35,069 nucleotides of DNA from Oscillospiraceae bacterium (GTDB lineage Bacteria > Bacillota > Clostridia > Oscillospirales > Oscillospiraceae): the NCBI GenBank assembly GCA_024404735.1, contig JAKSPP010000001.1:1-35069 (forward strand), written 5' to 3'. A program made the position numbers and the translations under genes. Below are positions 11,757 through 34,569 of this stretch, piece after piece (the stretch's first letter is position 1; the number at the start of each line of letters is the position of its first letter). The notes beneath the pieces are model-generated. The model worked only from the letters and a program-made list of their open reading frames with translations, was not told where the DNA came from and ran no database searches.

Positions 11757-11758
11757 TT

Positions 11759-12910: not shown

Positions 12911-12929
12911 AATGCTTACTCTCCTTTCA

Positions 12930-14492
12930 TCAGCGCTTCATCTTGGGGTCGAAGGCATCGCGGAGACCGTCGCCGACAAGGTTGAAGGCGAGAACGGTTG
13001 CAAGAAGGAGAACGCCTGCGGGAATCCAGATGAACCAGTATGTTGTAAGAACAAAGGTGTTGTTAACGTCATTTATTATGTTACCCCAGGATGCGAAGGG
13101 GAACTTGATTCCGAGACCGAGGAAGCTGAGGGTTGCCTCGGTGATGATTGTTCCGCCGACACCCATGGTGAAGGAAACAATAAGCTGAGGAATAACATTG
13201 GGAACAAGATGCTTGAAAATTCGGGAGCTTACCTTAAGACCGGAGGACTCCGTTGCCGTCATAAACTCCTGCTCACGGAGGGAGAGAATCTGACCTCTGA
13301 CCATTCTCGCAATTCCAGGCCAGCCGAGGATTCCGAGGATGAGCATAAGGTAAATCATTCTGATTTTCGGGTCAACTCTCATTGCATCCATGGCAGCGCC
13401 GAGAATGATGATGATAGGTGTGGAGGGTATGCAGTAGAAAATATCGACTATTCTCATTACGAGGTTGTCAACCCATTTTCCGAAGTAGCCTGCAATACCG
13501 CCGAGGATAACACCGATAAGAGTTGCAATAACTTCGACGATAAATCCGATAAGAAGTGAAACTCTTCCGCCGTACATAAGACGGGTAAGCATATCCATTC
13601 CGTTTCGGTCGGTTCCCAGCCAGTGGGCCTTGCTGGGAGAAGCATAGGTATCGTAAATACGGGATTCTGTCTGCTGCTTTACTGACCAGTTCTTGGTTGC
13701 GGGGTTATAGGAAACGGTGTATTCATGCTGTACGCCGTCGGTATCCGTGAAGTAAAAATCATCGTTGCCCGCATCAAGGGACTCTGCCAGCTCCTCCTTG
13801 AAGGCACGGGTAATAAATACGTCGGCCATTACGCTGCTGACGACATAACGGCTTATATAAGCAATTTCGTTATCGCCCTCGAAAACAACTCCGCCGTCGG
13901 AAATTGTGTACTGCTTTCCGTCGGCCTCGAAGCTGTCCGCTCCTGTGGAGTGAGCCTTAAGTGCGTTGTACTTGAGGGAGAAGGGAATATCCGCACCCTC
14001 AATACTTGAGGAGACGATATCCTTGTATGCAATGCCTATCATTGTTCCGTCCTCAAGAGATACGGAATAAAAATCCTCGCCCTCTGTTGTAATGCTGTAG
14101 TCAACCTTCTTGAAGCTGAAGGTGTCCTTGCCCTTCTGAAGGGCCATTACAAGCTGAGCCTGAATGACGGTGTCGAAGCTCTGCCCGTCTGCTACTGCAT
14201 AACGGAGCTCCTCGTTCTTTACAACACCGGCATATTCCTTGTTAAGGTACTCGTAGCGGTAGAAAAGCTGATTCTCTTTATAGGGGGAGATAAGTCCTCC
14301 GATAAAGGAGAAGACGAACATAAAAACGAGAATTACAAGGCCGACAAGGGCTATTCTGTTTCTGAAGAAACGCTTGGCAACAAGTGCGCCGGGAGAAAGG
14401 GTCTTAACACGGCGGTCATCGTTAAGGGAAAGCTCCTCGTTTTCAGCCTCTGCAGAGGTGTTTTCTCTGATTTCATTTGAATTATTGCTCAT
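12930..14492 (-). CDS. oppC: Oligopeptide ABC transporter permease (OppC type) with a large extracytoplasmic insertion
   Basis: 520 aa. TM1 is followed by ~210 extra residues and then the canonical HWLGTDRNGMDMLTRL motif and a BPD-transporter core. Confidence 0.85.
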   Translation of the reverse strand: MSNNSNEIRENTSAEAENEELSLNDDRRVKTLSPGALVAKRFFRNRIALVGLVILVFMFVFSFIGGLISPYKENQLFYRYEYLNKEYAGVVKNEELRYAVADGQSFDTVIQAQLVMALQKGKDTFSFKKVDYSITTEGEDFYSVSLEDGTMIGIAYKDIVSSSIEGADIPFSLKYNALKAHSTGADSFEADGKQYTISDGGVVFEGDNEIAYISRYVVSSVMADVFITRAFKEELAESLDAGNDDFYFTDTDGVQHEYTVSYNPATKNWSVKQQTESRIYDTYASPSKAHWLGTDRNGMDMLTRLMYGGRVSLLIGFIVEVIATLIGVILGGIAGYFGKWVDNLVMRIVDIFYCIPSTPIIIILGAAMDAMRVDPKIRMIYLMLILGILGWPGIARMVRGQILSLREQEFMTATESSGLKVSSRIFKHLVPNVIPQLIVSFTMGVGGTIITEATLSFLGLGIKFPFASWGNIINDVNNTFVLTTYWFIWIPAGVLLLATVLAFNLVGDGLRDAFDPKMKR

Positions 14493-14510
14493 TGTTACGT
14501 CCCCCGTTCC

Positions 14511-15497
14511 TCAGGAAATACGTACGCGGGGGTCAACCACAGCGTACAGAATATCGGAAATAAGATTTCCGGCAAGAGTCAGAATGGACAGGAAGGTTAG
14601 ATAGAACATGGAGAAGGGAATATCTCCGCCGACCATTGCGTGATAGGAGGTAAAGCCTATTCCGGGGATGGAGAAGAGGGTCTCCGTGATAAGAGCTCCG
14701 GAGAAAAGTCCGGGAAGAGAACCGCCGATAATAGTAACAAGAGGAATAAGAGTGTTGCGGAATGCGTGATGATAAATGACCTTTCCCTCGGGCAGACCCT
14801 TTGCTCTTGCGGTGCGGATGTAATCGGAGTTCAGAACCTCCAGCATATTGGTTCTTGTGTAACGCATAAGAGAGCCGATGGAAAGAACAACAAGAACAAT
14901 AATGGGCATAACAAGATGGTTTGCCTTGTCAAGGAACTGTCCCCAGGGGGAGAGCTGGTCATGGATTCTTCCGACGAGGCCGAAAAGGTCAAACCAGCCA
15001 AGCTTAACCGCAAAAACAAGCTTCATAAGAGAGGCAAAGAAGAATGTAGGAAGGGATATACCGGCCAGTGCAACAACAGTAATGGTGTAGTCTGTTCTTG
15101 AGTACTGCTTTGTGGCGGCAAGAACTCCGAGAGGAATTGCGATTGCCAGCTCAAAGAACATGGAAACCGCGCCCATAACGAAGCTGAGCCATACGGTATC
15201 GTTAAACTTTTCAATAACGGGAACAGTGTAATACCAGCTGTCTCCAAACTCGCCTTGGAGCATCTGCCCCCACCACGAGATAAAGCCGGGAATAATTCCT
15301 TTGTCCATATTATACATAGCCTCAAGCTGGGTCATCCACTCCTCGAAGCTTTTGGAGCCGGGCTGCATGGATTTTTGCCTTGCTATGTTTTCGATGTAGG
15401 ATGTTGGCAGGCAGCGCATAACTGCATAAATTATGAGCGTCACAAAAAACAGGATGACGATACTCAAAAGTATGCGCTTAATGATGAATTTGGTCAC
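14511..15497 (-). CDS. oppB: Oligopeptide ABC transporter permease (OppB type)
   Basis: The start FIIKRILLSIVILFF is typical of OppB, and the EAA-loop region reads YIRTARAKGLPEGKVIYHHAFRN. The track start (TTG 15515) overlaps the GGAGGAG RBS (15507-15513). GTG at 15497, 9 nt downstream of the RBS, is the more likely start. Confidence 0.85.
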   Translation of the reverse strand: MTKFIIKRILLSIVILFFVTLIIYAVMRCLPTSYIENIARQKSMQPGSKSFEEWMTQLEAMYNMDKGIIPGFISWWGQMLQGEFGDSWYYTVPVIEKFNDTVWLSFVMGAVSMFFELAIAIPLGVLAATKQYSRTDYTITVVALAGISLPTFFFASLMKLVFAVKLGWFDLFGLVGRIHDQLSPWGQFLDKANHLVMPIIVLVVLSIGSLMRYTRTNMLEVLNSDYIRTARAKGLPEGKVIYHHAFRNTLIPLVTIIGGSLPGLFSGALITETLFSIPGIGFTSYHAMVGGDIPFSMFYLTFLSILTLAGNLISDILYAVVDPRVRIS

Positions 15498-15571
15498 GGA
15501 TACTGTCTCCTCCAATCCGATATTGTTGTAAATGCCTGGGGGAAAATTTTGTCGCCGCAGAAAATAAGCCT

Positions 15572-15688
15572 CTGCGCACGAAGCAGCGTCTTTGCCCTTC
15601 GTGGGAATTCCCTTGAACTTGCGGTAAAGGCGCTGCTTCGTATGCAGCGGTATTATCCCGCAGCCCCGGAGGGCTTTGGGATAATACC
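15572..15688 (-). promoter_or_regulatory. Two strong adjacent hairpins in the oppA-oppB intergenic region (probable mRNA processing/stability or partial-termination element)
   Basis: ACGAAGCAGCG (15578-15588) pairs with CGCTGCTTCGT (15631-15641), an 11-bp perfect stem that encloses a GGGAATTCCC palindrome. GGTATTATCCC (15649-15659) pairs with GGGATAATACC (15678-15688), another 11-bp perfect stem, which encloses a GCCC-CGGA-GGGC mini-hairpin. Neither has a U-tract. Confidence 0.5.
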
Positions 15689-15731
15689 GTTAAAAATTAC
15701 GGTAAACTGAATAATCTCTTAAACCGTGAGA

Positions 15732-18116
15732 TTACTGCATAACAGTGTTCTCAATCTCGCTCATCCAGCCGTAGAAGGTGGTGATGTCGGGAGTGATGGT
15801 GGAGAGGTTTACACGCTCGGAGGAGAAGATGATGGCGTTCTGACGCTGGTATACGGGAATCTCAACTGCCCAGTCGATAACTATGTCAAGGGCTGCCTTG
15901 TACATAAGCTTTCTGTAAGCCTGGTCGGTGGAAGCTCTTGCAGCGAGAATAATCTCATCAAGCTCTTCGTCCTGAATGTTGTAGTGGTTGGAGCCGGTGG
16001 AGCCGGGGAGACCTACAACGTTGGTGGAGTGATAAATCTGGTACATGTCGGGATCGACGGTTGCGCCCCATGCAGCACACCACATATCAACGGTGTCGGC
16101 ATCCAGACCATCCCAGAGGTCTGCGGAGTTGGAGAGGTCCTTAACAACGAGCTTGAAGCCGATGGACTCGAGAGCAGCGGCAGCCTCGGTGATAACCATG
16201 AAGGAGGGGTGATCGCCGATACCGTCAGCGGGAATCCAGCACTCGTACTCGAGCTTGGCTCCCTCGGGAGCAGCGGTGACCTTGCCGTTTTCAACGGTGT
16301 AGCCTGCAGCCTCGAAGTAACCGAGAGCGGCCTCGAGAGCAGCGGCGTACTTCTCTTCGGCACCCATTGCGGAGGTGTAGATATCGTTGCCGTTAACGTC
16401 AACGGAGAAGGCTACCTTGTAGCCGTCGTCTGTGGACTGGGGAGCAGCCCAGGAGGTGTTGGAGATGGGGTAGTTGATGATGGCAGCGCGGTCGCCGTAG
16501 TAGGACTCAACGCCCAGGTTACGGTAAACAGAGATAACGGTTGCAATAGCCTTGCGGAGGTTCTTGGAAGCATCGGAATCCTTTTCGCCGACATTTACGC
16601 GGGAAGCGGAGATGCCGATGTAGCCGTAGCCGAGGTTGTCAACAGTGTTAACGGTAACAACGGAGCCGTTAAGCTCGCCGCCGTTGGCCTTCTCAATAGC
16701 AGCGATGCTATCGTTGGAGAAGGAAGGATCGGAGATATCGATGTTGCCGGTGATAACGCCGTTGAGCTTATCTTCGTCGGCGGTGCACTCCTGGAACTGA
16801 ACATACTTGGTGAGGGGGCAGCCCTTGAAGTAGTACTCGTTAGCTTCGTAGTAAACAACGCCGTTCTCGAACTTAACGAACTTGTAGGGGCCTGCGCCGA
16901 GAGGCTGGGTGGTCTTTGCACGAACAGAGCTCAGGTCGCCCTTGGCAAAGCCGAAGCAGTTGTTGTCGTAATCGTAGGAAGCCTTGTCACCGTAGTAGTG
17001 AAGAGGAGTGATGGAGAGAGAAAGCTGGTAGATAGCGGTTGCATCAAGCTCGGTGAGGATAACGCGGAGGCTGTTTTCTCCGGTCTTCTGAATACCTGCA
17101 ATGTTTGCAGCGGACTCACCGGTCTGAACACCGGCAACATACTCCTCGCCGAGAGCTGCGATAGTGAGAGAAACGAGGTCGGAGCCTGCGGTTTCTGTGG
17201 CTACAGCGGTATCAATATCGCCTTCATAAGCCTCAACGATAGCGTTCCAGAAGGCTTCGGCATCTGCGCCATCTTCGAGCTCAAAGCCCCAGAGGCCGGC
17301 AGCACCGGTAACGTCGGATACGCCGTAAGCAGCGCCGTAATTGGCAATGACATAGTCTACGATTTCCTGAGCAAAGTCAATGCCGGCCTGGGTGTTGTAA
17401 TAGTTCCAGAAAGCATTGTACTGTTCCTCAGTGTAGAGGTCTGTCTCTGTGTAGCCGTCGGGGCCGGCTGCAAGGATAACATTTGCACGGGTATCCATAC
17501 CGCTGCGGTACTCTTTCATACCGAGGATGGGCTGTGCGTAAAGGGTGGAGGCTCCGTCATAGGTGGGGTCACAGAGAACATACATGGAGAAGATAACGTC
17601 ATCAATGGTGAGGTCTTCGCCATCGGAGAACTTGAGGCCGTCTGCAAGAGTGAAATCATAGTAAACGGTGCCGTCGGCATTCTCGGTGATAACGCAGTCT
17701 GCAGGTCCGTTGTAGGTGTAATCGGTGCCGTTGTAAGCGATGGTCTCGCCCTCAATACCGTTGAGAATCATAGCGCCGGTACGGTCGGAGGTGAGAAGTC
17801 CAAGCTGAGTCATTGCGGCAGCATCCTGGTCATAAGCAGACTCTGCGAAGAAGGGAGAGAACTTGCTGCTGAAGGATGAGTAACCGATAACAAGAGGACG
17901 GTTGGGGTCGGAAGCAACGGGCTTCTCCTCGGGCTGAGCGTCGGGAGTAGTGTCGGGCTCGGTTGTGCCCTCGTTGCCTGTGGTGTCTGCGGGGGTTGTT
18001 GCTTCGGTGTTATTGGTTTCGGTCTGTGCGTTGTCGGTGGTATTGGTCTTGCCACATGCCGCAAAAACGCTGAGACACATAACAACAGCAAGAAGCAGTG
18101 CGATTGTCTTTTTCAT
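15732..18116 (-). CDS. oppA: Peptide-binding lipoprotein, ABC solute-binding protein family 5 (OppA type), oversized
   Basis: The start is reset to the ATG at 18116, where an AAGGAGGA RBS lies 8 nt upstream. The signal peptide and lipobox read MKKTIALLLAVVMCLSVFAAC. A T/P/E-rich linker follows, then family-5 SBP sequence (LKFSDGEDLTIDDV, PLGAGPYKF). Confidence 0.85.
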   Translation of the reverse strand: MKKTIALLLAVVMCLSVFAACGKTNTTDNAQTETNNTEATTPADTTGNEGTTEPDTTPDAQPEEKPVASDPNRPLVIGYSSFSSKFSPFFAESAYDQDAAAMTQLGLLTSDRTGAMILNGIEGETIAYNGTDYTYNGPADCVITENADGTVYYDFTLADGLKFSDGEDLTIDDVIFSMYVLCDPTYDGASTLYAQPILGMKEYRSGMDTRANVILAAGPDGYTETDLYTEEQYNAFWNYYNTQAGIDFAQEIVDYVIANYGAAYGVSDVTGAAGLWGFELEDGADAEAFWNAIVEAYEGDIDTAVATETAGSDLVSLTIAALGEEYVAGVQTGESAANIAGIQKTGENSLRVILTELDATAIYQLSLSITPLHYYGDKASYDYDNNCFGFAKGDLSSVRAKTTQPLGAGPYKFVKFENGVVYYEANEYYFKGCPLTKYVQFQECTADEDKLNGVITGNIDISDPSFSNDSIAAIEKANGGELNGSVVTVNTVDNLGYGYIGISASRVNVGEKDSDASKNLRKAIATVISVYRNLGVESYYGDRAAIINYPISNTSWAAPQSTDDGYKVAFSVDVNGNDIYTSAMGAEEKYAAALEAALGYFEAAGYTVENGKVTAAPEGAKLEYECWIPADGIGDHPSFMVITEAAAALESIGFKLVVKDLSNSADLWDGLDADTVDMWCAAWGATVDPDMYQIYHSTNVVGLPGSTGSNHYNIQDEELDEIILAARASTDQAYRKLMYKAALDIVIDWAVEIPVYQRQNAIIFSSERVNLSTITPDITTFYGWMSEIENTVMQ

Positions 18117-18165
18117 TTTTGAATTTTCCTCCTTATAGAAAAATTTTTGTTTGGCTAACAATCGT

Positions 18166-23927: not shown

Positions 23928-23963
23928 TCTCCTCCGGTTTTCAGACCGGGGGAGATTTTTTTT
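23928..23963 (+). terminator. Intrinsic terminator after the AGCS gene
   Basis: TCTCCTCCGGT-TTTCAG-ACCGGGGGAGA followed by T8. Confidence 0.75.
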
Positions 23964-24147
23964 ACGGATTTTTCCTTTAGTGAAACATATTTTGGTTTTT
24001 GCCGTCTAAATATAATGCGGTGCCGGAGAAGGAAAATATACCTTCCCTTCGGAATAATATACAAAAATGCTACAACAGAGTATTAGACTGTGCATTACTT
24101 TAAGGTATTATGCGCCGAATATCAATATCCTATGGAGGAATGACAAT

Positions 24148-26682
24148 ATGACAAAAACAGGATTAAAGAGGTTTATGTGCCTGCTTCTTGCCGGACTTAT
24201 GCTTCTGTCTCTTTGCGCCTGCGGTAAGGGCGGGGACGATGGAAAGCCTTCAAAAACAGACGGCAAGGGAGAAAAAACCGAAAACACCACGGAAAACGAG
24301 GAAAATCTTGACCCCAACCGCCTCGTTTACACTGCTTCCTATACACCCGTAAAGTTCCCGGAGCAGCTCGGCGGTATGAATTATGTGAATTTCCGTACTG
24401 TAATAAACGGCAAAATGCTTGTAAGCTCTTATGGCGTTGTTGCCGATAATACCCCCGAGGGAGTTACCCCGGAATATGAGGGCGAGTACTGGGAGTACGG
24501 CGATGTTTATTACCTCATCTCCGCTGACGGTACAGTCGAGCCCTTTGAGATGAAGCCGTATAAGTATGAAGGCATTCCCGATAATGCCGAGTACTCCGGC
24601 TGCTATCTCAACACAAGTGCCTTTGCCGATGATGGTACAAGATACGAGTCATATAATGTTTACTGGGAAATCTACACCGGTAAGAGAAATCCCGATGGCT
24701 CTCTTCCCGATGATGCCTGGAATTATATGGATTATCACGATTTCACCATTCTCCGCATAACCGCCCCCGATGGAACCGAGAATGTAATAGACCTCTGTGA
24801 AGCTCTTGACCTCGATTACTGCTATATTAATTCGATTGTTGCCGATGATAATGGAAATGCATATTTCTGCTTTGACACTTCCCTAGTTATGGTAAAATCC
24901 GACGGAACTGCCGCAGTGATTGACGCAGGCGGCGGCTGGGTCGAAGGTCTTATGATGCTTAATGGAAAGCTTGCGGTTTTCTTATACGAAGATTCGGGAA
25001 TGGTTTGCAAATATTATGATGCTGAAAAGGGTACCTTCTCCGACCCCGTAAAGATTCCGAATGATGCCTACAATGCTATTCCCGGAGCAGGCGAGTATGA
25101 TATGTTCATTCAGAACGGAACCAGCTTCTACGGCTATAAGATTGAAACCGGTGAGAAGGATAAAATATTCTCCTGGATGAGCCTTGATGTCGATCCCTAC
25201 AGTGTAGGCAGTATTGTTCCTCAGGAGGACGGAAGCTTTATAACATTCTCTTCTTCCTGGGATGACGATGCAAACGGCGGCAATGGCGGTTACTCTGCCG
25301 ATCTTATCAAAGTTTATCAGTGCCCCGCATCACAGCTTAAGCTTAAAAAATCCATTACCTATGCCTGCAATTATCTCAATTACAGTATTCGTGAAGCAAT
25401 CTTTAAGTTCAATAAGACCAATCCCGATTACAGAATTGAAGTTATAGATTACTCCGAGTACAACACGGATGAGGACTATACCTACGGCATCACCAAGCTC
25501 AAGACGGAAATTATGGCGGGCAAGGTTCCCGATATTATCCAGCTTGATAATCTCCCTGTTTCCACTTTTGAGGACAAGGGCATTCTTGCCGACCTCTATG
25601 AGTTTATGGAAAACGATGCTGAGGTAAACAGGGATACTCTTGTTGCCGATGTCCTTGCCCATCTTGAAAACGACGGACATCTTTACAAAATCTCTCCCGA
25701 CTTCTCTGTCCGTGTATTCTACGGACTTAAAAAGGTTGTCGGCGATAAGCCCGGCTGGTCATATGCAGACTTTGCCGCTGCTTACAGAAAACTCCCCGCA
25801 GGCGCCAATCCTCTGACCAACTGGTACACAAAATTTGATGCATGGCCTCTTATCCTCAATGCAAATATGGCAAAGCTTCTTGATGACGGAACCGGTAAGT
25901 GTGCTTTCGATTCTCAGCTTTATAAAGATACCCTCTCTTTTGTTTCCATGTTCCCCGAAATTTATGACTGGAGCACTGCGGATGGTGTCTACTACGACAA
26001 TGACGTAGATTTCCTCAGGGAAGGAAAGCAGCTTCTCCTTGAACAGCGCTTTTATGATACATGGAGCTATGAGTACTTCATGGCTCAGGCCGGCGATGAA
26101 ATCTGCCCCGTCGGTATCCCCGTATCCGAGGGTGTCGGAAACTTCATTGAGATAAGCAACGGACTTCTCGGCATTTCCGCAGCCTCTCCCTCCAAGGATG
26201 CAGCCTGGGAGTTTGTAAGAAGCCTTCTTACCTACGATTACCAGAGAAGAAATATCTGGAATCTTCCTCTGAATGCCCAGTATTTTGAGGAGAATCTCGA
26301 GCAGCTTACAAGAGTTGATTACGAAATTAATTACGAAACAGGCGAATATCTCCGAGATGAGAACGGTGAGCTTGTAAAAGTTCCCCATGGTTATATCTGG
26401 AATCGCGGTTCCGGAAGCATCGGAATAATGAGAGACGGCGGCATCGACAGTGGAGAGGGTGAAAACATCCCGTATTACGAGATGAGTGCCGAGCAGGTTC
26501 AGGCATTCCGCGATATCATAAAGAATGCCTACGGCCTCTATAACGGCTATATCGATAACGACGAAATCGCAGCCATGATTATGAATGACTCTGCTCCTTA
26601 CTTCGACGGAAGCAAGTCTCTTGACGAAATCGCAAAGATTCTTCAGAGCAAGATGAGCATTTATCTTGCCGAGCAGGAATAA
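24148..26682 (+). CDS. Large lipoprotein: unknown N-terminal domain (~370 aa) fused to an ABC family-1 extracellular solute-binding domain
   Basis: The start is reset to the ATG at 24148, with a GGAGGAA RBS. The lipobox reads LLAGLMLLSLCAC. From nt ~25350 the C-terminal ~440 aa show SBP_bac_1-like motifs (FNKTNPDYRIEVIDYSEY, AGKVPDIIQLDNLPVSTFEDKGILADL). I do not recognise the N-terminal half. Confidence 0.75.
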   Translation: MTKTGLKRFMCLLLAGLMLLSLCACGKGGDDGKPSKTDGKGEKTENTTENEENLDPNRLVYTASYTPVKFPEQLGGMNYVNFRTVINGKMLVSSYGVVADNTPEGVTPEYEGEYWEYGDVYYLISADGTVEPFEMKPYKYEGIPDNAEYSGCYLNTSAFADDGTRYESYNVYWEIYTGKRNPDGSLPDDAWNYMDYHDFTILRITAPDGTENVIDLCEALDLDYCYINSIVADDNGNAYFCFDTSLVMVKSDGTAAVIDAGGGWVEGLMMLNGKLAVFLYEDSGMVCKYYDAEKGTFSDPVKIPNDAYNAIPGAGEYDMFIQNGTSFYGYKIETGEKDKIFSWMSLDVDPYSVGSIVPQEDGSFITFSSSWDDDANGGNGGYSADLIKVYQCPASQLKLKKSITYACNYLNYSIREAIFKFNKTNPDYRIEVIDYSEYNTDEDYTYGITKLKTEIMAGKVPDIIQLDNLPVSTFEDKGILADLYEFMENDAEVNRDTLVADVLAHLENDGHLYKISPDFSVRVFYGLKKVVGDKPGWSYADFAAAYRKLPAGANPLTNWYTKFDAWPLILNANMAKLLDDGTGKCAFDSQLYKDTLSFVSMFPEIYDWSTADGVYYDNDVDFLREGKQLLLEQRFYDTWSYEYFMAQAGDEICPVGIPVSEGVGNFIEISNGLLGISAASPSKDAAWEFVRSLLTYDYQRRNIWNLPLNAQYFEENLEQLTRVDYEINYETGEYLRDENGELVKVPHGYIWNRGSGSIGIMRDGGIDSGEGENIPYYEMSAEQVQAFRDIIKNAYGLYNGYIDNDEIAAMIMNDSAPYFDGSKSLDEIAKILQSKMSIYLAEQE

Positions 26683-26719
26683 TTAATTATTATCAATAAT
26701 AATCTACAATAATGTTTTT

Positions 26720-26758
26720 CTTCACTCAGAAGGCAAAAGCTTTGCCTTCTGAGTGAAG
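26720..26758 (+). promoter_or_regulatory. Perfect 18-bp hairpin after the binding-protein gene (mRNA stabiliser / partial terminator)
   Basis: CTTCACTCAGAAGGCAAA-AGC-TTTGCCTTCTGAGTGAAG. No downstream T-tract. Confidence 0.5.
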
Positions 26759-26805
26759 TGGCGTTACTCCCGAAGGGAAAAATACTTGAAAGGAAGAAAA
26801 GCACA

Positions 26806-27699
26806 ATGGAAAAGAAACTTAAAAGTGCAAAACTGAAAACAAAGCTTCTCGATTATTTCCGAAGTGTCTGCTTCCTTTTTCCCTCTCTTGCGGGAGTGCT
26901 TGTTTTCTTTATTGCCCCCTTTATTGTTGTTGTCTATTATTCCTTGATAGACAACGTAACGGATGGCAGCTTTGTCGGACTGTATAATTTCACAAAGCTC
27001 TTTTCGAATTATGCCTTCCGTCTGGCTGCGAAAAACACACTTCTCTTTTCCGCAACAGCCGTCCCGGCTGCGGTAATTCTTGCAATTGTTCTGGCCCTCA
27101 TGCTTGAGTGCCGTATCCCCTTAAAAAGCTATTTCAGAACCTTCTTTTTAAGCCCCATGATGGTCCCCGTTGCCTCCATTGTTCTTATCTGGCAGGTGCT
27201 TTTCAACAAATACGGAACCGTCAACGAAATTATGCTCCTTTTCGGAAAGGAGCAGATTGACTGGCTCAACAGCGAGTACTGCAGGCTCGTTGTTGTGCTT
27301 CTGTTTCTCTGGAAAAATCTTGGCTATAATATGATTCTTTTCATGGCGGCCATTTCAAATATACCGAAGGAGCTTCTTGAGGTTGCCGATGTTGAAGGAG
27401 CCTCCGGTCTTTACAAATTCTTTCAGATAAAGCTCCGCTATCTCTCACCGACCATTCTCTTCGTTACAATCCTCTCGCTTATAAACTCCTTCAAAATATA
27501 CAGGGAGGTATATCAGCTCTGCGGTGCCTATCCCTATGAGGGTCTTTACACCCTCCAGCACTTTATGAACAATACCTTCTCCTCCCTTGATTATCAGAAG
27601 CTTTCGGCGGCCGCCGTTATTATGGCAATAGCCATGGTAATCATAATCGGCCTTCTCTTCATCGTCGAAAACGCCTTCGGAAAGGATGTGGAGGGATGA
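26806..27699 (+). CDS. ABC transporter permease, MalF/CUT1 type
   Basis: The start is reset to the ATG at 26806. It has six predicted TM segments. The EAA loop reads LEVADVEGASGLYKFFQIKLRYLSP. Confidence 0.85.
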   Translation: MEKKLKSAKLKTKLLDYFRSVCFLFPSLAGVLVFFIAPFIVVVYYSLIDNVTDGSFVGLYNFTKLFSNYAFRLAAKNTLLFSATAVPAAVILAIVLALMLECRIPLKSYFRTFFLSPMMVPVASIVLIWQVLFNKYGTVNEIMLLFGKEQIDWLNSEYCRLVVVLLFLWKNLGYNMILFMAAISNIPKELLEVADVEGASGLYKFFQIKLRYLSPTILFVTILSLINSFKIYREVYQLCGAYPYEGLYTLQHFMNNTFSSLDYQKLSAAAVIMAIAMVIIIGLLFIVENAFGKDVEG

Positions 27700-28571
27700 A
27701 AAAGAAAAGATATTTCGGCAGGGGCGTTATGTTCCTTCTCTGCCTGATTTTCGCCGTAATATTTCTCCTGCCAACGGTGCTGACCATTACAAACTCCTTT
27801 ATGGAGGAGAGCGAAATAAAGTCCAATTACGGAATGATTTTCGGTGCCTCCGGAGGCGGCTATGTCTCCGAGAAGGTTAATCTTAAATTCATCCCCGATA
27901 AGGTAACCCTGAAGCAGTATATGACGGGACTTATTACAACCCCCGATTATCTTCTTAAGTTCTGGAACAGTATTAAACTGACTGTTCCCATAGTAATTTT
28001 CCAGATAGTTATAGCCTCCGTTGCGGCCTACAGCTTCACCCGCTGGAGGGGCAAGGTTCGAAGCTTCCTGTTCTTCTTCTATGTTATTCTGATGCTTATG
28101 CCCTATCAGGTAACTCTTGTTCCGAACTATCTGATAAGCCAGAAGCTGAATATTCTGAATACAGTATGGGCAATTATTCTTCCGGGTATTTTCGCCCCGT
28201 TTTCTGTTTTTCTGCTGACGAAATTTATGAGGCGAATTCCCTATTCCCTTATTGAGGCGGCTATGACAGACGGTGCAAGTGAGGCAAGAATATTCTTCTC
28301 CATCTGTCTTCCCCAGTGCCGCAGTGCAATATTCTCCATCGCAATTCTCGTTTTCGTAGATTACTGGAATATGGTAGAGCAGCCCGTTGTTCTCCTTGAA
28401 AATGCGGAGATGCAGCCCCTTTCCGTATTCCTCTCATCGATAAATCAGTCCGAAATAGGCCTTGCCTTTGCAATGGCAACGGTCTATATGATACCGTCCA
28501 TTCTCATCTTCCTGAAGGGTGAGGCTTACCTCGTTGAGGGTATTGCCCATTCCGGAAGTGTCAAGGGCTAA
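27696..28571 (+). CDS. ABC transporter permease, MalG/CUT1 type
   Basis: 291 aa with an ATGA overlap to the upstream gene. The EAA loop reads LIEAAMTDGASEARIFFSICLPQ. Confidence 0.85.
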   Translation: MKKKRYFGRGVMFLLCLIFAVIFLLPTVLTITNSFMEESEIKSNYGMIFGASGGGYVSEKVNLKFIPDKVTLKQYMTGLITTPDYLLKFWNSIKLTVPIVIFQIVIASVAAYSFTRWRGKVRSFLFFFYVILMLMPYQVTLVPNYLISQKLNILNTVWAIILPGIFAPFSVFLLTKFMRRIPYSLIEAAMTDGASEARIFFSICLPQCRSAIFSIAILVFVDYWNMVEQPVVLLENAEMQPLSVFLSSINQSEIGLAFAMATVYMIPSILIFLKGEAYLVEGIAHSGSVKG

Positions 28572-28598
28572 TGAAAATAAGCTAAAAGGAAGTGCAAA

Positions 28599-30962
28599 AT
28601 GCAGGAAAAAGTAGGAAAAAGAAGCTGGGTTAATATTGTAATCATAGTCTTCCTTATTATTTTGCTTGTCTTAACCTTTTTTTCAAATACAATCCGTAAT
28701 CGTAATCTCTCCGAGTGCACAACCGCAACCGTAGGCTACGGTACCATCGACAGTAAGGTCCGTGGCTCCGGTACAGTTTCCGCAAAGGAGAGCTATGAGC
28801 TCAAGGCCTCCGATACCCGCAAGGTAAAGAGCGTTCTTGTAAATAACGGACAGACTGTCACTGCCGGTGAGGTCCTTCTTGTTCTCGAGGCAGGGGAATC
28901 TTCCGAGCTTGCCGAGGAGGAAGAAACTCTCCGCCAGATGCAGCTTGCCTATCAGCGCTCCGTCATCTCCGCCTTTTCCGCAGACTACACCGTTCAGAAC
29001 AGAGCAATTGAGGAGACCCAGACGGCAATAGACGAGGCCGTGGCCGCCCGCGATGCTATGGATTACCGCCCCGAGTCTGTCTCCGAGCACAAGACAAATC
29101 TTGATAACTCCATCGCAACCAGGGATAAAGCGCAGAATGAGTACGATGCCGCCCAAAGAAAGGTTGATGAGTTTGACCTCCAGATAGGAAGCGAGGGTGA
29201 TGACGGCCTTTATGATATGTGGCAGAAGGCAAAAAAAGAACTCGAAATCGCAAAGCACGAATATGGTGCAGATTATGATGAATTAAAAGAACTTGCCAAA
29301 GACAGAGTATATATTGACGAAGCCAAAACCATAAGCAACTATAAAACCGAAGCTGCTAAGGATAGTTATGCTGCCGGAAAGCTTGATATTTATCTCCCGA
29401 TAGTAGCAAAGGAATTCGTCAATAATACTATTCATCCTTACTATGCTGCATATCTCAATGTTAAGGATGCTCGCGAAGGAAAAACAGATTCAACAGAGGA
29501 AGCTTTAAGAGAGAATTTGACTGATGCAGAAAATGCTCTTTCAGATTATTTGGATTCGAAAGACTACAATGATCTTTTGGCATATGTAAGAGATACTATT
29601 GCCGATAACAAGGAAGAATACGGTATCGATGTTGGGAGCTTAGAAGGAGAAGAACGCGATAAATATCTTGATACTTTTGTTCCCGACTATATTGACGAAA
29701 TAGCCAAATCCGCAATACTCAGTGCGTCAACAAAAAAATACTATGATTCTTATACTGCTTGGAAAGAACTTGAAAAGAAAGTAGCGGATTGTAAGCAAAA
29801 AATAGACGACTTAAATAACAGCACTTCTTCTGTTTCTTCAGCGGAAAGCAATCAGAATTACATTAAACTTGTAAAATTAGCTGAGTCCAGAATGGCAAGA
29901 AAAGGCGATACAGAGGGTGACCTCGAGAAATATATCGAAGCAGAAGCCAAACTGTACAGCAAGGATTATTCTACTGTTTATATAGAAATGTCATCCGCCG
30001 AGTCTGCCGTTGAAAATGCAAGGGACAGCTACTACAACACTATTTCTCCAAGTAACTCCGGTGAGTATAAAAAACTAAAGTCTGCCGCCGATGCAAAAAG
30101 AGCCGTTCTCGATACAGCCACAAGGGATGTCGAGACAAAGCAGACTGCTTACGATAAGGCCGTAGAGACAAAAGAAGAGTATGACGGCTATGTGGCAACG
30201 ATAACCCAGCTGCAGAAGACTCTTGAGGACCAGATTTTCAATCTTGAGCAGCAGCAGAAGGCCGACGGAAAGACTCAGACCCTTGAATGGCTGGATATCA
30301 ATGAGCAGAAGCGTAAGATTGATGAGCAGCAGGCCAAGGTTGATGAGCTTAAGGCCGCCGAAGGTGAGGAAGGGGAAACAGAGATTAAGGCCCCTGTTTC
30401 CGGTGTAATCAGAGAGATTTCCATAGCCCCAGGCAACAAGACAAGCCCCGATGGTATTATTCTCAAGATAGAAATCAAGGATATGGGCTACAGCCTTTCC
30501 TTCAGCGTAACCAATGAGCAGGCCAAGCTCATCCGCAAGGGTGATACCGGTGAACTCACCAATATGTGGTGGGGCGGCAATATATATGCCGAGGTAACGG
30601 ATATAAAGTCCGATCCCCAGAATCCCAGAACAAACAAGATGATTTACTTCTCTGTAACGGGTGATGTTTCCGATGGTGAAACTCTCGACCTCTCCGTTGG
30701 CAGAAGGTCTGCCGAATTTGATTCCGTAGTACCGAAAGCGGCCCTCAAGAGCGATAATAACGGTGATTTCGTCTATGTATGCACACTGAAATCATCTCCT
30801 CTCGGAAACCGCTATATTGCCGAGAGAGTCAGTGTTGAGGTTATTGCCCGTGATGACAGGAACGTTGCAGTATCCGGTGCGCTTGATTACGGTGCCTATG
30901 TTATTGTAAACTCCTCTCTTCCCATTTCAAACGGAAGTCAGGTCCGCCTTGCGGGACAGTAA
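28599..30962 (+). CDS. HlyD/membrane-fusion-protein-family adaptor with an exceptionally long alpha-helical region
   Basis: 787 aa. There is an N-terminal TM (WVNIVIIVFLIILLVLTFF). The split lipoyl-like halves are SYELKASDTRKVKSVLVNNGQTVTAGEVLLVLE and EIKAPVSGVIREISIAPGNK, separated by ~490 residues rich in E/K/A/D/L. A C-terminal beta-barrel-like region follows. Confidence 0.7.
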   Translation: MQEKVGKRSWVNIVIIVFLIILLVLTFFSNTIRNRNLSECTTATVGYGTIDSKVRGSGTVSAKESYELKASDTRKVKSVLVNNGQTVTAGEVLLVLEAGESSELAEEEETLRQMQLAYQRSVISAFSADYTVQNRAIEETQTAIDEAVAARDAMDYRPESVSEHKTNLDNSIATRDKAQNEYDAAQRKVDEFDLQIGSEGDDGLYDMWQKAKKELEIAKHEYGADYDELKELAKDRVYIDEAKTISNYKTEAAKDSYAAGKLDIYLPIVAKEFVNNTIHPYYAAYLNVKDAREGKTDSTEEALRENLTDAENALSDYLDSKDYNDLLAYVRDTIADNKEEYGIDVGSLEGEERDKYLDTFVPDYIDEIAKSAILSASTKKYYDSYTAWKELEKKVADCKQKIDDLNNSTSSVSSAESNQNYIKLVKLAESRMARKGDTEGDLEKYIEAEAKLYSKDYSTVYIEMSSAESAVENARDSYYNTISPSNSGEYKKLKSAADAKRAVLDTATRDVETKQTAYDKAVETKEEYDGYVATITQLQKTLEDQIFNLEQQQKADGKTQTLEWLDINEQKRKIDEQQAKVDELKAAEGEEGETEIKAPVSGVIREISIAPGNKTSPDGIILKIEIKDMGYSLSFSVTNEQAKLIRKGDTGELTNMWWGGNIYAEVTDIKSDPQNPRTNKMIYFSVTGDVSDGETLDLSVGRRSAEFDSVVPKAALKSDNNGDFVYVCTLKSSPLGNRYIAERVSVEVIARDDRNVAVSGALDYGAYVIVNSSLPISNGSQVRLAGQ

Positions 30963-30991
30963 TAAAAATATTTGATTAAGAGCTGATTAAT

Positions 30992-31990
30992 ATGAAGAAA
31001 TTCCCCGTAAAACTTCAGATTGTATCGGGAATCCTGATTATTGCCGCCCTTGTGCTTGTTTATGTGAGAGGAGGCCTCAGCCTTCCCTCAATAACAGCGG
31101 CAGAGCGCTGGAAGGGAGAAAGTGAAAAAGCTTTTTCCCAGATGGCGGTATATTTCCATGAAGGTCTCGGCCCGGATATTCAGGAACTGTATACCTTCCG
31201 CGTTAATCTCGACTCGGAGTACAGTGATAAAAGTGTTGAGGCGGGGGAGAACGAGCGCCTTTACAATGACGCCTGGTGCACCTTCGGGAAAATGACGCTG
31301 TTTTCCGAAAAGGATAAGGTTGAGGCAAGTGTCACCGCCTGCGGAGGAGATTTCTTCTTTTTTCACCCCTATGAGCTTCTTTCGGGTGGCTATTTTTCCG
31401 ATGAGGAACTGTCAAGGGATCTGGTTGTCCTTGATGAGGACCTCGCCTGGCGCCTCTTCGGAGGAGTTGACATTGCCGGGCAGAATGTTATAATAGGCAA
31501 CGATGTTTTTGTTGTTTCCGGCGTAATAAGGCGCGAGGAGGACAAGGCATCAAAGCTCAGCTATGACGGTGGAATGGGCTTCTATATGTCCTATGAGGCC
31601 TACAGGGCAAGAACGGAAGGCTGCAGGGCCGATTGCTATGAGATAGTAATGCATGAGGTGGTCGAGGGCTTTGCCGAAGGCTTCCTTAAGGATAAATTCT
31701 CCTCCGGGCAGGTAATAAACAATTCCGAAAGGCTCTCCTTTTCCGCAGGTGTTAAAACGGCAAAGGCCTTCGGAACCCGTTCGGCTCAGGTCGGAGGAAT
31801 AAGGCTTCCCTACTGGGAGAACGCCGCCCGTTATACCGAGGACTATAACGCCCTGTATTCCGTCCTCATAATTGCTTTGTTTGTTATCCCTGTCCTGACG
31901 GTTCTTTTCGATATTGTTTTCTTTATTGTTCTCGGCTGGAGAAAGGTGAAGACGGCAGTGCGCAGCAGGATAATAGATATTGACTACTGA
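30992..31990 (+). CDS. MacB/FtsX-type periplasmic core domain protein with only two TM helices (no FtsX 4-TM bundle)
   Basis: 332 aa with an N-terminal TM. The segment GGDFFFFHPYELLSGGYFSDEELSRDLVVLDEDLAWRLFGGVDIAGQNVIIGNDVFVVSGVI resembles the MacB_PCD signature. A single C-terminal TM (LYSVLIIALFVIPVLTVLFDIVFFIVLGW) is followed soon by the stop. Confidence 0.55.
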   Translation: MKKFPVKLQIVSGILIIAALVLVYVRGGLSLPSITAAERWKGESEKAFSQMAVYFHEGLGPDIQELYTFRVNLDSEYSDKSVEAGENERLYNDAWCTFGKMTLFSEKDKVEASVTACGGDFFFFHPYELLSGGYFSDEELSRDLVVLDEDLAWRLFGGVDIAGQNVIIGNDVFVVSGVIRREEDKASKLSYDGGMGFYMSYEAYRARTEGCRADCYEIVMHEVVEGFAEGFLKDKFSSGQVINNSERLSFSAGVKTAKAFGTRSAQVGGIRLPYWENAARYTEDYNALYSVLIIALFVIPVLTVLFDIVFFIVLGWRKVKTAVRSRIIDIDY

Positions 31991-32008
31991 TTTTCGGAGC
32001 ATATTGAT

Positions 32009-32713
32009 ATGATTGCAGTAATAGTAAACACGATAACGGTACTCATAGGCGGCTGCCTCGGCCTCTTTCTTCGAAACAAAATTAAAGAGAACATAGTAAA
32101 ATCGGTTATCTGCGCCCTTGCAACCGTTACGATAGTAATAGGCGTTCAGAGTGCAATAAAAAGCTCGGACACTCTCTGCACAATCATTTCAATAGCCTTC
32201 GGAACCATAATCGGTGAACTCATTAAGCTTGATGACTTTTTTGCCTCTGCCGGAGATTTGATTAAGGCGAAGGTTTTAAGGGGCAAAAATGCAGGAGGCC
32301 GTTTCACAGAGGGCTTCGTTTCCGCCTGCATCCTTTTCTGCGTGGGCTCAATGACAATAATGGGCTCCTTTGAGGCAGGCATTAATAAGAACTATGACAT
32401 AATCTTTGCAAAGAGCACTCTGGACTTCTTCTCCTCCACGATGTTCGGCGCTGCTATGGGAGTCGGTGTTCCCTTTGCGGCGGTTTTCGTTCTTGTTTTT
32501 CAGGGCGCCCTTACTCTCCTTGCCGGAACCCTTTCCGGCGTGCTCAGTCCCGAAGTTGTAATCGAAATGAGCGCCGTCGGCGGATGTATTCTCATTGCAA
32601 TGGGAATCAATATGTTTGAATTGTCGGACAGAAGAATTAAGGTTGCGAATATGCTCCCCGGTGTATTCATGCCCCTTATTTATCTGCCCATTGCAAAGCT
32701 CCTCGGCGCATAA
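32009..32713 (+). CDS. DUF554 (YqgA/YdfK-like) integral membrane protein
   Basis: 234 aa, polytopic. The start MIAVIVNTITVLIGGCLGLFLRNKI and the GS.T..G..EAG pattern are typical of DUF554. Confidence 0.7.
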   Translation: MIAVIVNTITVLIGGCLGLFLRNKIKENIVKSVICALATVTIVIGVQSAIKSSDTLCTIISIAFGTIIGELIKLDDFFASAGDLIKAKVLRGKNAGGRFTEGFVSACILFCVGSMTIMGSFEAGINKNYDIIFAKSTLDFFSSTMFGAAMGVGVPFAAVFVLVFQGALTLLAGTLSGVLSPEVVIEMSAVGGCILIAMGINMFELSDRRIKVANMLPGVFMPLIYLPIAKLLGA

Positions 32714-32730
32714 AATTTGCTTAAATAGAA

Positions 32731-32764
32731 GCACTCTGCAGTAAAACCGCAGGGTGCTTTTTTA
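32731..32764 (+). terminator. Intrinsic terminator closing the 24148-32713 gene block
   Basis: GCACTCTGC..GCAGGGTGC forms a 9-bp stem followed by T7. Confidence 0.65.
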
Positions 32765-32780
32765 TAAAAAACATAATAAT

Positions 32781-32809
32781 TTGACAAAGGCTTTCTGAAG
32801 TATTATAAT
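32781..32809 (+). promoter_or_regulatory. Perfect-consensus SigA promoter
   Basis: TTGACA (32781-32786), exactly 17 nt, then TATAAT (32804-32809). Confidence 0.7.
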
Positions 32810-32880: not shown

Positions 32881-34569
32881 ATGAAAAAAGCATTATCCGT
32901 ACTGCTTGTTCTTGTGATGCTCCTTTCTCTGTGTGCCTGCGGCTCCGGTTCCAATGGCTCATCTGCCAAGGGCTCAAATGACAGCGATGATGAAAACCTC
33001 GGCGTTTATGAAATTAAAAAGGCTGTCAAGGGTGAAATATCCGTTGATGTTGATGACCTTTTTGAAGACGGTTTTACCATTGAGCTCAAGGCCAAGGGCA
33101 AGTGCAAGATGAACATCGACGGTCAGGAAGGCAAGGGCGAATGGGAGCTTAACGGAAAGAAAATCGAGATTTCCGGCAGCGGAGTTGAGTTCTCCGGTAC
33201 TCTCAAGAAGGGTATCATGACTCTCACCGACATTGAAGATTCCGGTATTGACATCATCCTTGTTCTTGATGGCGTTGACTATGAGGACGAAGACGCCCCC
33301 GCAAAGAAGGATGATAAGGACGGCAAGGATAAGGGCGAGACCCCTGCTGTTGCCGAGGAATCTATCGAGGGCACCTACGTCTTTACAGCTCTCGGCGAGG
33401 ATTACGAAGGCGTTCTTACACCTGATGCCATGGAGGAATTATTCGGTTCCGACGATTATGTCGATGCACGCATTGTTCTGAACAGTGACGGTACCGGTAC
33501 ATTCTCATTCGATGGCGAAGATGCCGATCTTGAATGGGATGAGACCAGCATTATTGTCGATGACGACCCCGCAGAATATGAAGTCAGAGGCAATGACCTC
33601 ATCCTTACCATCGATGATATGTTCATGGTATTCACCAAAGAAGGCAAGAAGAGCAAGCTTGATCTCATTGCTTACTTTGATGAGCTTGGCTACACATGGG
33701 ATGAGGATATTTATGAGTTTGTTGTAAATGGAGTTTCTCCCTTCACAGGAAGCAACACCAATCCCTCTTCCGGCACAACAACCGAAGGTCCCGCAGTTAC
33801 TTTCCAGGAGTATGTTGTTGTTGACAATGACAAGTGCACCGTCAAGATTACAGGCTTCGATCCCGCAGCAGGCTACTCCGGAAATCAAGTTGAGGTCAAG
33901 GTATATCTTGAGAACAAGACCTCCGATATGACTCTCAGATTCTCCACAGACTACTCCGCACTGAATGGTGTCAGCTCTTACTCCTCTCTTTACGAAGACG
34001 TTACCGCAGGCAAGAAAGCCAATGCAACTATTTCCTTCTGGGATACCGATGTCCTTCGTGAGAACGGAATGGACCTTTTCACCATCGTTGAAATCGGCCT
34101 CCGCGTCAGAGAAGCCGATAATTACAGCGCCGATCCTATTTTCGTCGGAAGCGCAACAATTTATCCCTATGGTGAGTCTGCCGCAAAGAAGTTTGAGAGA
34201 ATTCCCAATGCAAACGACCTTCTTCTCATTGACGAGGCCGGTTATTCCGTAACCATTCTCGACTTTGTCGAAAACGACTGGGGCGACATGGCCCTCGGTG
34301 TTTATGTTGAGAACAACACAGACAAAACACTCTATTTCACTACCGATAATGACGCACTTAACGGCTATATGGTAGATCCTTACTGGGGAGTTGAGGTAGC
34401 ACCCGGCCTGTCTGCATTCTCCGAAATCAGCTTTGATGAGGATGACCTTGCAGAGCTTAATATTAATTCCTACGCCGATATTGAAGAGTATGAGGCCACA
34501 TGGCGCATTATTGACGACAATACATGGACAGACCTTTACAAGGATGTCTGGACAATTACCTTCTCCTGA
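32881..34569 (+). CDS. Lipoprotein of unknown function with two pairs of internally duplicated domains
   Basis: 562 aa with a GGAGGAAA RBS and lipobox MLLSLCAC. The duplicated C-terminal modules align as VKVYLENKTSDMTLRFSTDYSALNG versus LGVYVENNTDKTLYFTTDNDALNG. Confidence 0.75.
   Translation: MKKALSVLLVLVMLLSLCACGSGSNGSSAKGSNDSDDENLGVYEIKKAVKGEISVDVDDLFEDGFTIELKAKGKCKMNIDGQEGKGEWELNGKKIEISGSGVEFSGTLKKGIMTLTDIEDSGIDIILVLDGVDYEDEDAPAKKDDKDGKDKGETPAVAEESIEGTYVFTALGEDYEGVLTPDAMEELFGSDDYVDARIVLNSDGTGTFSFDGEDADLEWDETSIIVDDDPAEYEVRGNDLILTIDDMFMVFTKEGKKSKLDLIAYFDELGYTWDEDIYEFVVNGVSPFTGSNTNPSSGTTTEGPAVTFQEYVVVDNDKCTVKITGFDPAAGYSGNQVEVKVYLENKTSDMTLRFSTDYSALNGVSSYSSLYEDVTAGKKANATISFWDTDVLRENGMDLFTIVEIGLRVREADNYSADPIFVGSATIYPYGESAAKKFERIPNANDLLLIDEAGYSVTILDFVENDWGDMALGVYVENNTDKTLYFTTDNDALNGYMVDPYWGVEVAPGLSAFSEISFDEDDLAELNINSYADIEEYEATWRIIDDNTWTDLYKDVWTITFS

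Follow-up and report, generated by a model that had tools for sequence, protein, structure and literature searches.

A gene cluster that combines importer and exporter-type parts

We analysed a 35,069-nucleotide stretch of DNA from an Oscillospiraceae bacterium (NCBI GenBank assembly GCA_024404735.1, contig JAKSPP010000001.1, positions 1 to 35,069 of the forward strand), referred to here as the window. Its plus strand carries a cluster of six open reading frames (ORFs), at 24067/24148-26682, 26758/26806-27699, 27696-28571, 28599-30962, 30992-31990 and 32009-32713, which we call g1 to g6. Gene order in related genomes indicates that the first five constitute one conserved ATP-binding cassette (ABC) transport system, in which a binding lipoprotein and a pair of importer-type permeases are joined by an adaptor and by a protein with a MacB-type domain, two kinds of envelope protein that have otherwise been seen only in MacAB-type efflux pumps. 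An earlier reading of these letters by a model, made without database searches (the sequence-only reading), had described the six genes as a composite operon, and its coordinates, spacers and domain calls were all borne out.

Two alternative starts, 24067 for g1 and 26758 for g2, were dropped in favour of 24148 and 26806 on the basis of the ribosome-binding site, the signal peptide and the gene calls of a relative: 24148 follows the ribosome-binding site GGAGGA at 24134-24139 and opens a lipoprotein signal peptide, and 26806 is the gene caller's choice in the 95%-identical relative L085. With g2 starting at the ATG at 26806, the hairpin-containing spacer after g1 measures the 123 nt that had been reported. 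Equally as described before, the start of g3 overlaps the stop of g2 in an ATGA (27696-27699) and the gaps between the last four genes are short, at 27, 29 and 18 nt.

The importer core

The first gene, g1 (24148-26682, plus strand), encodes an 844-aa lipoprotein (lipobox LSLCAC|G) in which an N-terminal beta-propeller of the pyrroloquinoline quinone (PQQ)-like type (~aa 60-400) precedes a CUT1-type solute-binding domain. Pfam detects SBP_bac_1 (40.5 bits against a cutoff of 26) over aa 442-726 only of the 871-aa long ORF. When a profile of 21 orthologues was searched against the PDB, the solute-binding part matched CbpC (7x0o, E=3e-23) and also Lmo0181 (5f7v), and the N-terminal part matched the PQQ propeller 3hxj (E=4e-8) and designed 'Cake' propellers; this search upholds the earlier description of a giant, fused binding lipoprotein. 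g1 is thus the cognate family-1 solute-binding protein (SBP) of a CUT1 importer, with the propeller as an extra.

The two genes that follow encode CUT1 permeases, MalF/UgpA-like in g2 (26806-27699, plus strand; 297 aa) and MalG/UgpE-like in g3 (27696-28571, plus strand; 291 aa). Both match the Pfam family BPD_transp_1, with 53.5 and 52.3 bits respectively against a cutoff of 26.4, and the nearest NCBIfam families are UgpA and GlcT for g2 and GlcU, UgpE and MalG for g3. Each has an EAA loop, which in g2 can be read from the translation as EVADVEGASG...L.P. The CUT1 pair of BPD_transp_1 permeases with EAA coupling loops is therefore complete.

Annotation of the window confirmed that neither an ABC ATPase nor an FtsX domain, and hence no FtsX transmembrane (TM) bundle, lies in or beside the cluster, as the sequence-only reading had stated. 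The sole ATPases in the window are those of an Opp operon at 10.7-12.9 kb on the opposite strand. Among relatives, 24/68 loci have a gene for a UgpC/MalK-type ATPase immediately after g5, separated from it by a median of 2 nt; the product of this gene combines the domains ABC_tran, OB_MalK and TOBE_2 and passes the UgpC subfamily cutoff (485 bits against 432). In those loci the position of this importer-type ATPase gene places the adaptor and MacB-domain genes inside the importer gene set. The ATPase gene of CUT1 systems is often unlinked, as with shared MsmX-type ATPases, and the host of the window would encode its UgpC/MalK/MsmX-type ATPase elsewhere in the genome.

The adaptor and the MacB-domain protein

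Next in the cluster, g4 (28599-30962, plus strand) encodes a 787-aa membrane-anchored adaptor of the membrane fusion protein/periplasmic adaptor protein (MFP/PAP) type. It matches the Pfam families HlyD_3 (31.3 bits against a cutoff of 22.2), Biotin_lipoyl and HlyD_D23, and scores 70.7 bits against TIGR01730, under the cutoff of 94.9; precomputed Pfam matches also include YknX_C and BSH_CzcB. A TM helix (aa 9-34) is followed by a lipoyl domain, a helical region of ~490 aa, a beta-barrel and a YknX_C-type membrane-proximal domain. The protein has the whole domain set of an MFP, namely anchor, split lipoyl domain, helical hairpin, beta-barrel and membrane-proximal domain, and is a MacA/EmrA/YknX-like adaptor; the best Foldseek matches are EmrA, MacA, BesA, AcrA and Spr0693. 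Its AlphaFold2 (AF2) model, with a mean predicted local distance difference test (pLDDT) of 68.8, contains helices at 102-589, one of them of 106 residues, and beta domains at 594-760. Since the predicted TM-score (pTM) is 0.35, the global model was not used for geometry, and we relied on domain order and local matches. Adaptors in relatives are 504-767 aa long, and the variation in length falls entirely in the helical region.

The product of g5 (30992-31990, plus strand) is a 332-aa protein with two TM helices and, between them, a MacB-type extracytoplasmic (Porter+Sabre) domain. Pfam recognises in it only MacB_PCD, the MacB periplasmic core domain (PCD), with 38.5 bits against a cutoff of 27. 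The AF2 model (pLDDT 90.4, pTM 0.84) consists of TM1, a mixed α/β domain, one 58-residue helix that forms both a stalk and TM2, and a short basic tail. Foldseek matched it to the MacB PCD 3ftj (E=1e-11), to 5nik_J (the MacB chain of MacAB-TolC), to Spr0695, to the extracytoplasmic domain of YknZ and to LolC/E; TM-scores on target length were 0.63-0.69 for isolated MacB domains. The large domains of g4 and g5 both lie outside the membrane.

A Porter+Sabre domain between TM1 and TM2 is shared with MacB and FtsX. The four-TM FtsX fold with its coupling helix is missing, and both the AF2 model and an alignment of 25 sequences show TM1, domain, TM2 and tail only. Because TM3-4 and the coupling helix are absent, g5 cannot itself be a MacB/FtsX transporter. 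A dedicated ATPase of the MacB/LolD/FtsE type is absent from the window too, and the MalK type is the only one that recurs in the 83 related loci surveyed below. The module as a whole is therefore not a MacB/FtsX transporter, although it shares the outer domain and the adaptor of that family. The g5 family comprises 675 clusters at 50% identity (E<=1e-30), all with MacB_PCD alone and nearly all of 330-450 aa. Three motifs, GGDFFxFHP, LAWRLFG and PYWENAAR, are invariant in it, and PYWENAAR sits in the stalk at the membrane surface.

g1 to g5 recur as one module

Gene neighbourhoods were compared in 83 non-redundant loci from different species, made up of the best 80 loci and earlier ones, and per-gene counts cover only those loci whose upstream sequence extends far enough. 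When loci are sampled through the PCD protein, 72/72 have g4, 68/68 have g3, 63/63 have g2 and 49/55 have g1. The series permease-permease-adaptor-PCD appears in the same order, on one strand and tightly spaced in all 63 testable loci, with median gaps of 30 nt between g3 and g4 (n=69) and ~22 nt between g4 and g5 (n=83). SBP genes often stand in 2-3 tandem paralogues. Three distant g5 homologues on long contigs (38-42% identity) show the same SBP(~800 aa)-permease-permease-adaptor-PCD arrangement in unrelated surroundings, and independent sampling through three adaptor homologues recovered the same module in 3/3 cases. When one genome per species was scanned, members of the PCD family turned up in at least 522 species-level genomes, and almost all of the carriers are Oscillospiraceae-type Clostridia from gut and rumen.

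These counts bear on an alternative already raised by the sequence-only reading, in which a CUT1 importer and an unrelated, orphan adaptor/PCD pair are merely co-transcribed. The component families are indeed otherwise known from different transporter types, and the physical tie between the importer and g4/g5 is a predicted one. Collinear adjacency, however, holds in 63/63 loci through the PCD protein and 3/3 through the adaptor, so that it is not a peculiarity of one genome, and it persists at 36-48% PCD identity and in unrelated genomic contexts. The importer-type ATPase gene that follows the PCD gene in 24/68 loci and the lack of any recurrent FtsX or MacB-type ATPase in the flanks argue in the same direction. 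For g1 to g5 we reject chance co-transcription on this adjacency and regard it as very improbable. The co-occurrence of all six genes across Clostridia, which had been proposed as a check, thus stands for g1 to g5 (63/63 for the core, 49/55 for g1) and fails for DUF554 (0/83).

Clustering of all flanking ORFs revealed just two further recurrent neighbours, the MalK-type ATPase and a VanRS/OmpR-like two-component system. The latter lies beside the SBP gene, divergent or co-directional, in ~23 loci (for example L001 1340-3371, minus strand, and L087 1-1836, plus strand) and does not occur in the window. No FtsX-like or MacB-type ATPase neighbour was recurrent in the flanking-ORF clusters of the 83 loci; weak ABC-ATPase matches 3' of g5 in L081 and L049, considered as a hidden MacB engine, belong to ABC-2-type or unrelated systems. 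A sugar-utilisation locus was rejected as well, glycoside hydrolases and sugar regulators not being recurrent nearby.

The six loci (of 55) that have no adjacent SBP gene rely either on an unlinked SBP or on no SBP at all. Their flanking ORFs are unrelated genes, for UDP-glucose dehydrogenase, MatE, DUF969/979, GcpE, a P-type ATPase, LytR and a PMT-type glycosyltransferase. Three SBP-less modules carry two tandem adaptor genes, of ~600 aa and 411-431 aa, between the permeases and the PCD gene (L022 6849-9968, L027 6728-9933 and L035 2960-6190).

Boundaries of the transcription unit and the DUF554 gene

On the left, the intrinsic terminator of an upstream Na+/alanine symporter gene (23928-23955, plus strand; a 12-bp stem with 7 GC pairs, then T8) is the predicted boundary of the transcription unit. 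On the right, folding located an intrinsic terminator at 32727-32761 (plus strand; -19.6 kcal/mol, z = -4.5, then U6), which agrees with the strong terminator previously placed near 32731; a consensus scan overlooked it because of its loop length. The claim that no terminator interrupts the unit also holds, since terminator-like matches are at chance level (13 found, 9.6±3.0 expected).

The spacer between g1 and g2 contains a hairpin at 26720-26758 (plus strand) with a perfect 18-bp stem and no U-tract. The minimum free energy of the spacer fold is -39.2 kcal/mol (z = -5.7), and 0/200 shuffles fold as well. The hairpin has no Rfam match; it probably serves the stability or processing of the mRNA and not termination. 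An Rfam scan of 23.8-33.0 kb returned no riboswitch or leader.

The last gene of the cluster, g6 (32009-32713, plus strand), encodes a DUF554 membrane protein (Pfam DUF554, E=3e-68). By tblastn it was found in 0/83 related loci, which rules it out as a member of the module; only the near-identical genome L085 has the gene. Inside g5, 515 nt upstream of the DUF554 start, lies a sigma-70-type promoter-like site (31467-31494, plus strand; TTGACA-16-TATAAT with TG upstream, 12/12 matches). By our own estimate ~0.003 such perfect sites are expected in the region, and an internal promoter ahead of DUF554 is therefore likely. The hexamers are unchanged in L085 (10476-10503), within what is a conserved coding stretch. 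These results correct the earlier description in two respects: DUF554, which had been counted into the composite operon, is absent from 83/83 relatives, and the unit has a likely internal promoter. DUF554 is a passenger specific to its lineage and probably has a promoter of its own. In L027 (11110-11817) and L035 (7361-8068), a 235-aa ORF without a Pfam family lies directly 3' of the PCD gene; it has the size of DUF554 yet is dissimilar in sequence.

Downstream of the terminator at 32727-32761, a perfect consensus promoter (32781-32809) precedes a gene for a 562-aa lipoprotein without a Pfam family (32881-34569, plus strand), whose signal peptide, LLSLCACG, closely matches the g1 signal peptide. 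Identity to L085 drops to 77-82% in a patch at 33300-33900, from 98-100% on either side, and the gene is not conserved beside the module in other loci.

The remaining window is ordinary chromosome, with Amt-PII, type III glutamine synthetase (GS-III), glutamate synthase, the Opp operon, rplJL and the Na/Ala symporter. An ammonium transporter of 574 aa fused to a C-terminal P-II domain (586-2310, minus strand) adjoins the type III glutamine synthetase and a split glutamate synthase cluster. The Opp-type ABC operon (10740-18161, minus strand) has oversized parts: its SBP_bac_5 protein reaches 809 aa, with an N-terminus of low complexity, and its OppC-like permease 520 aa. Antisense to the Opp SBP gene, in the GC-rich 16-18 kb, runs an overlapping ORF of 717 aa that belongs to no family and is probably spurious.

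Frozen membrane parts and diversifying outer parts

Identity to the window's proteins across genera is 63-82% for the permeases (g2 63-81%, g3 64-82%), 36-48% for the PCD protein and 25-36% for the SBP. Within families, conservation was scored as the mean frequency of the commonest residue. In the adaptor family the TM helix scores highest (0.84), followed by the beta domains (0.63-0.74), and the distal helices score 0.19 with 54% gaps; in the g5 family the TM helices reach 0.42-0.44 and the stalk 0.77. Such conservation suggests that within the membrane the TM helix of the adaptor touches a specific partner, and this partner would be the permeases because they are the sole membrane components that are comparably frozen.

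Between the window and L085, the backbone is ~99-100% identical, with synonymous divergence (dS) of 0.03-0.06, and g2 is 100% identical. g1 is 78% identical with a dS of 0.89, and identity returns sharply to 100% at 26700. Within the adaptor, aa 1-200 are 98-99% identical, against 53-65% for aa 201-520, where indels of 31 and 16 aa occur and dS is 1.0-1.7. At the nucleotide level, the SBP gene and the part of the adaptor gene that encodes the distal helices (29200-30200) are 69-85% identical, with indels, and the 5' half of g5 is ~90% identical. Other close pairs show the same kind of ranking, from most to least diverged: adaptor middle, SBP, PCD, adaptor ends and permeases. The adaptor middle is 29% identical between L076 and L078 against 88% for the ends, and 82% against 99% between L013 and L016.

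High dS together with high nonsynonymous divergence (dN) in the SBP and the adaptor middle points to imported alleles, and the divergence of g1 and of the adaptor middle from L085 looks like recombinational allele replacement. Imported alleles of this kind are the usual mark of surface-exposed, diversifying proteins. The pattern supports, short of proof, the prediction that the SBP and the tip of the adaptor are exposed on the cell surface.

That the SBP and the outer part of the adaptor diverge together between close relatives would also be expected if g4 and g5 served to assemble or position the giant SBP lipoprotein and stood outside the transport cycle. The PCD would then hold or orient the lipid-anchored SBP as a LolC/E domain does, and the adaptor would be a spacer keeping wall material off the docking site. 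Structural neighbours of g5 include the periplasmic domains of LolC/LolE, and in the metagenomic protein P0341 (1089 aa) a PCD-family protein reads straight into a g1-type propeller-SBP lipoprotein, with a lipobox (LTGC) kept after TM2. P0341 may reflect an alternative PCD->SBP gene order and perhaps a real fusion, but it may also be a missed stop or an assembly or gene-calling artefact. Moreover, the permease-permease-adaptor-PCD core persists in loci without an adjacent SBP gene, and the extreme conservation of the adaptor TM helix points to a partner in the membrane and not to the SBP. We consider a role confined to SBP positioning to be quite improbable.

A working model of an importer with a wall-spanning superstructure

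From the gene set, folds, topology and conservation pattern described above, we infer how the parts might assemble, what they might carry and in which direction. Taken as a whole, the reading that we favour, and hold to be reasonably probable, is that g1 to g5 are an ABC machine of the CUT1 kind for SBP-dependent uptake, equipped with a wall-spanning scaffold or funnel derived from MacAB. Its importer core would be formed by the propeller-SBP lipoprotein and the MalF/MalG-like permease pair with EAA loops, powered by an ATPase of the UgpC/MalK/MsmX type. The two accessory proteins, g4 and g5, would descend from a MacAB-type pump and be permanently attached to this core. The membrane-proximal and barrel domains of the adaptor would seat on the g5 domain as MacA does on MacB, the near-invariant TM helix of g4 would pack against the near-invariant permeases, and the hypervariable helical extension would reach through the wall zone to the cell surface. 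The ligand would be oligosaccharide-like, taken up in an SBP-dependent manner, and the g4/g5 superstructure would aid its capture or delivery.

A wall-spanning conduit coupled to uptake, as raised by the sequence-only reading, would fit the helical region of ~490 residues, the hypervariable distal helices and the frozen membrane parts. P0341, the family member that reads from the PCD into a g1-type SBP lipoprotein, also speaks for a single system. Membrane-proximal domains are found only in adaptors that are paired with transporters having large periplasmic domains (PMC4446572), and because of this rule the membrane-proximal domain of g4 fits a pairing of g4 with g5. Uptake is favoured because the core is importer-type in every tested feature and because SBP genes are present, often in tandem.

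Several points weigh against this model. A closed adaptor hexamer over the transporter would sterically bar docking of the 844-aa SBP, so the MacAB geometry is not simply transferable. Contact of g4 and g5 with the permeases or the SBP is something that we infer, and the model of g4 has low global confidence (pTM 0.35). The matches of the permeases to named NCBIfam families are all far below equivalog cutoffs. In the survey, an SBP gene is missing beside the module in 6/55 loci, glycoside hydrolases and sugar regulators do not recur in the flanking-ORF clustering of the 83 loci, and the only recurrent regulator is VanRS/OmpR-like, a type met more often in envelope or antimicrobial responses than in the uptake of sugars.

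Some of the same observations would suit a hybrid machine for mechanotransmission or efflux, in which type I permeases and a MalK-type ATPase replace the FtsX/MacB engine. ATP-driven movements of the permeases, relayed by the g5 stalk and by the invariant TM helix of the adaptor, would reach the g5 domain and the adaptor. An antimicrobial peptide, a lipid-linked molecule or a wall component would be expelled, or extracted from the outer leaflet or wall zone, via the adaptor tube, and the role of the SBP would be that of an acceptor, sensor or donor and not of a nutrient receptor. The invariant PYWENAAR motif of the stalk lies at the membrane surface, where such coupling would take place. The two-component system flanking the module in ~23 loci, the lack of conserved sugar-catabolic genes nearby, the 6/55 loci without an adjacent SBP gene and the three loci with two adaptor genes are all compatible with this idea. 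It is opposed by the structure of g5, which is without the coupling helix and TM3-4, the force-receiving parts of MacB. Moreover, 89% of loci have an SBP gene, often as 2-3 tandem paralogues as in nutrient-uptake loci, and the SBP domain of g1 is closest to oligosaccharide binders. Furthermore, we know of no type I (BPD_transp_1) ABC system that exports. In favour of the hybrid machine, all characterised pairs of a MacB-PCD protein and an MFP serve export or extraction (Foldseek neighbours; Spr0693-0695, PMC5768738). On balance we rate an export or force-transmitting role as unlikely, with a better chance than a role confined to SBP positioning.

Comparison with known systems

Apart from the ATPase, which the window does not contain, the core resembles CUT1 systems (TC 3.A.1.1; MalEFGK2, UgpBAEC and the importers energised by MsmX/MsmK). 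Shared features are the BPD_transp_1 pair with EAA loops, the SBP_bac_1-type lipoprotein, the UgpC/MalK-type ATPase with OB/TOBE domains in relatives of the module, and a stem-loop between the SBP and permease genes. Unlike these systems, the module has an MFP and a PCD-only protein as additional, obligatory envelope subunits; its SBP carries a beta-propeller of ~350 aa; its permeases are unusually conserved across genera (63-82%); and it is without linked glycoside hydrolases or sugar regulators.

The superstructure resembles Spr0693-0694-0695 of S. pneumoniae (PMC5768738) and YknWXYZ of Bacillus (PMC4887032), which likewise belong to monoderm hosts and have an adaptor with TM anchor, lipoyl, beta-barrel, YknX_C and helical domains, and a partner with a Porter/Sabre domain between TM1 and TM2. 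In contrast to those partners, g5 has two TM helices only, with neither TM3-4 of FtsX nor a coupling helix, and the module is without a MacB/LolD-type ATPase and without YknW, its genetic partner being an importer-type core. The much shorter Spr0693 hexamer has been proposed to reach ~154 Å from the membrane toward the peptidoglycan (PMC5768738); its hairpin barrel measures 56 Å, whereas g4 has a hypervariable helical region of ~490 aa.

FtsEX with EnvC, PcsB or RipC (PMC10694151) also brings together a MacB-type domain and a long coiled-coil protein in the wall zone, with no movement of substrate across the membrane. FtsX differs from g5 in its four TM helices, in having its own ATPase, FtsE, and in the task of its partners, which control peptidoglycan hydrolases. 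The beta domains of g4 are those of an adaptor, and neither a hydrolase nor a hydrolase-binding domain was detected in g4.

Full-text literature searches turned up no account of an importer that is partnered by an MFP or by MacB_PCD, an absence that is no proof of novelty, and the one mention of CUT1 in an adaptor review concerns ATPase regulatory domains. There are no NCBIfam models for g1, g5 or g6. The module is widespread and, to the extent that the tools and literature used here can show, undescribed.

Implications

In the textbook view, adaptors and MacB-type domains belong to exporters, and type I ABC systems import. The strict union of an importer with an adaptor and a MacB-domain protein, found in at least 522 species-level genomes of Clostridia that are abundant in gut and rumen, calls this division between export and import into question. 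A bolder reading, which we put forward tentatively and regard as doubtful, is that the module represents a distinct class of ABC machine in monoderm gut Clostridia, in which a type I core is structurally and mechanically coupled to a MacAB-derived superstructure. Coupling would run through the invariant adaptor TM helix and the two-TM MacB-domain protein, and a surface-exposed mast of up to ~490 residues would span the wall. Mast and propeller-SBP would diversify together by recombination through contact with the outside, be it ligand, phage or host immunity, and the core would pull in large surface-captured substrates or do mechanical work in the wall.

The system is tractable, with few components, a high-confidence model of the PCD protein and a conservation pattern that marks likely interfaces. 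It opens to test the role of adaptors in bacteria without an outer membrane and the passage of large ligands or mechanical signals across a thick cell wall. Because mast and SBP are hypervariable, the system is also likely to be exposed at the surface and targeted by phages or host immunity.

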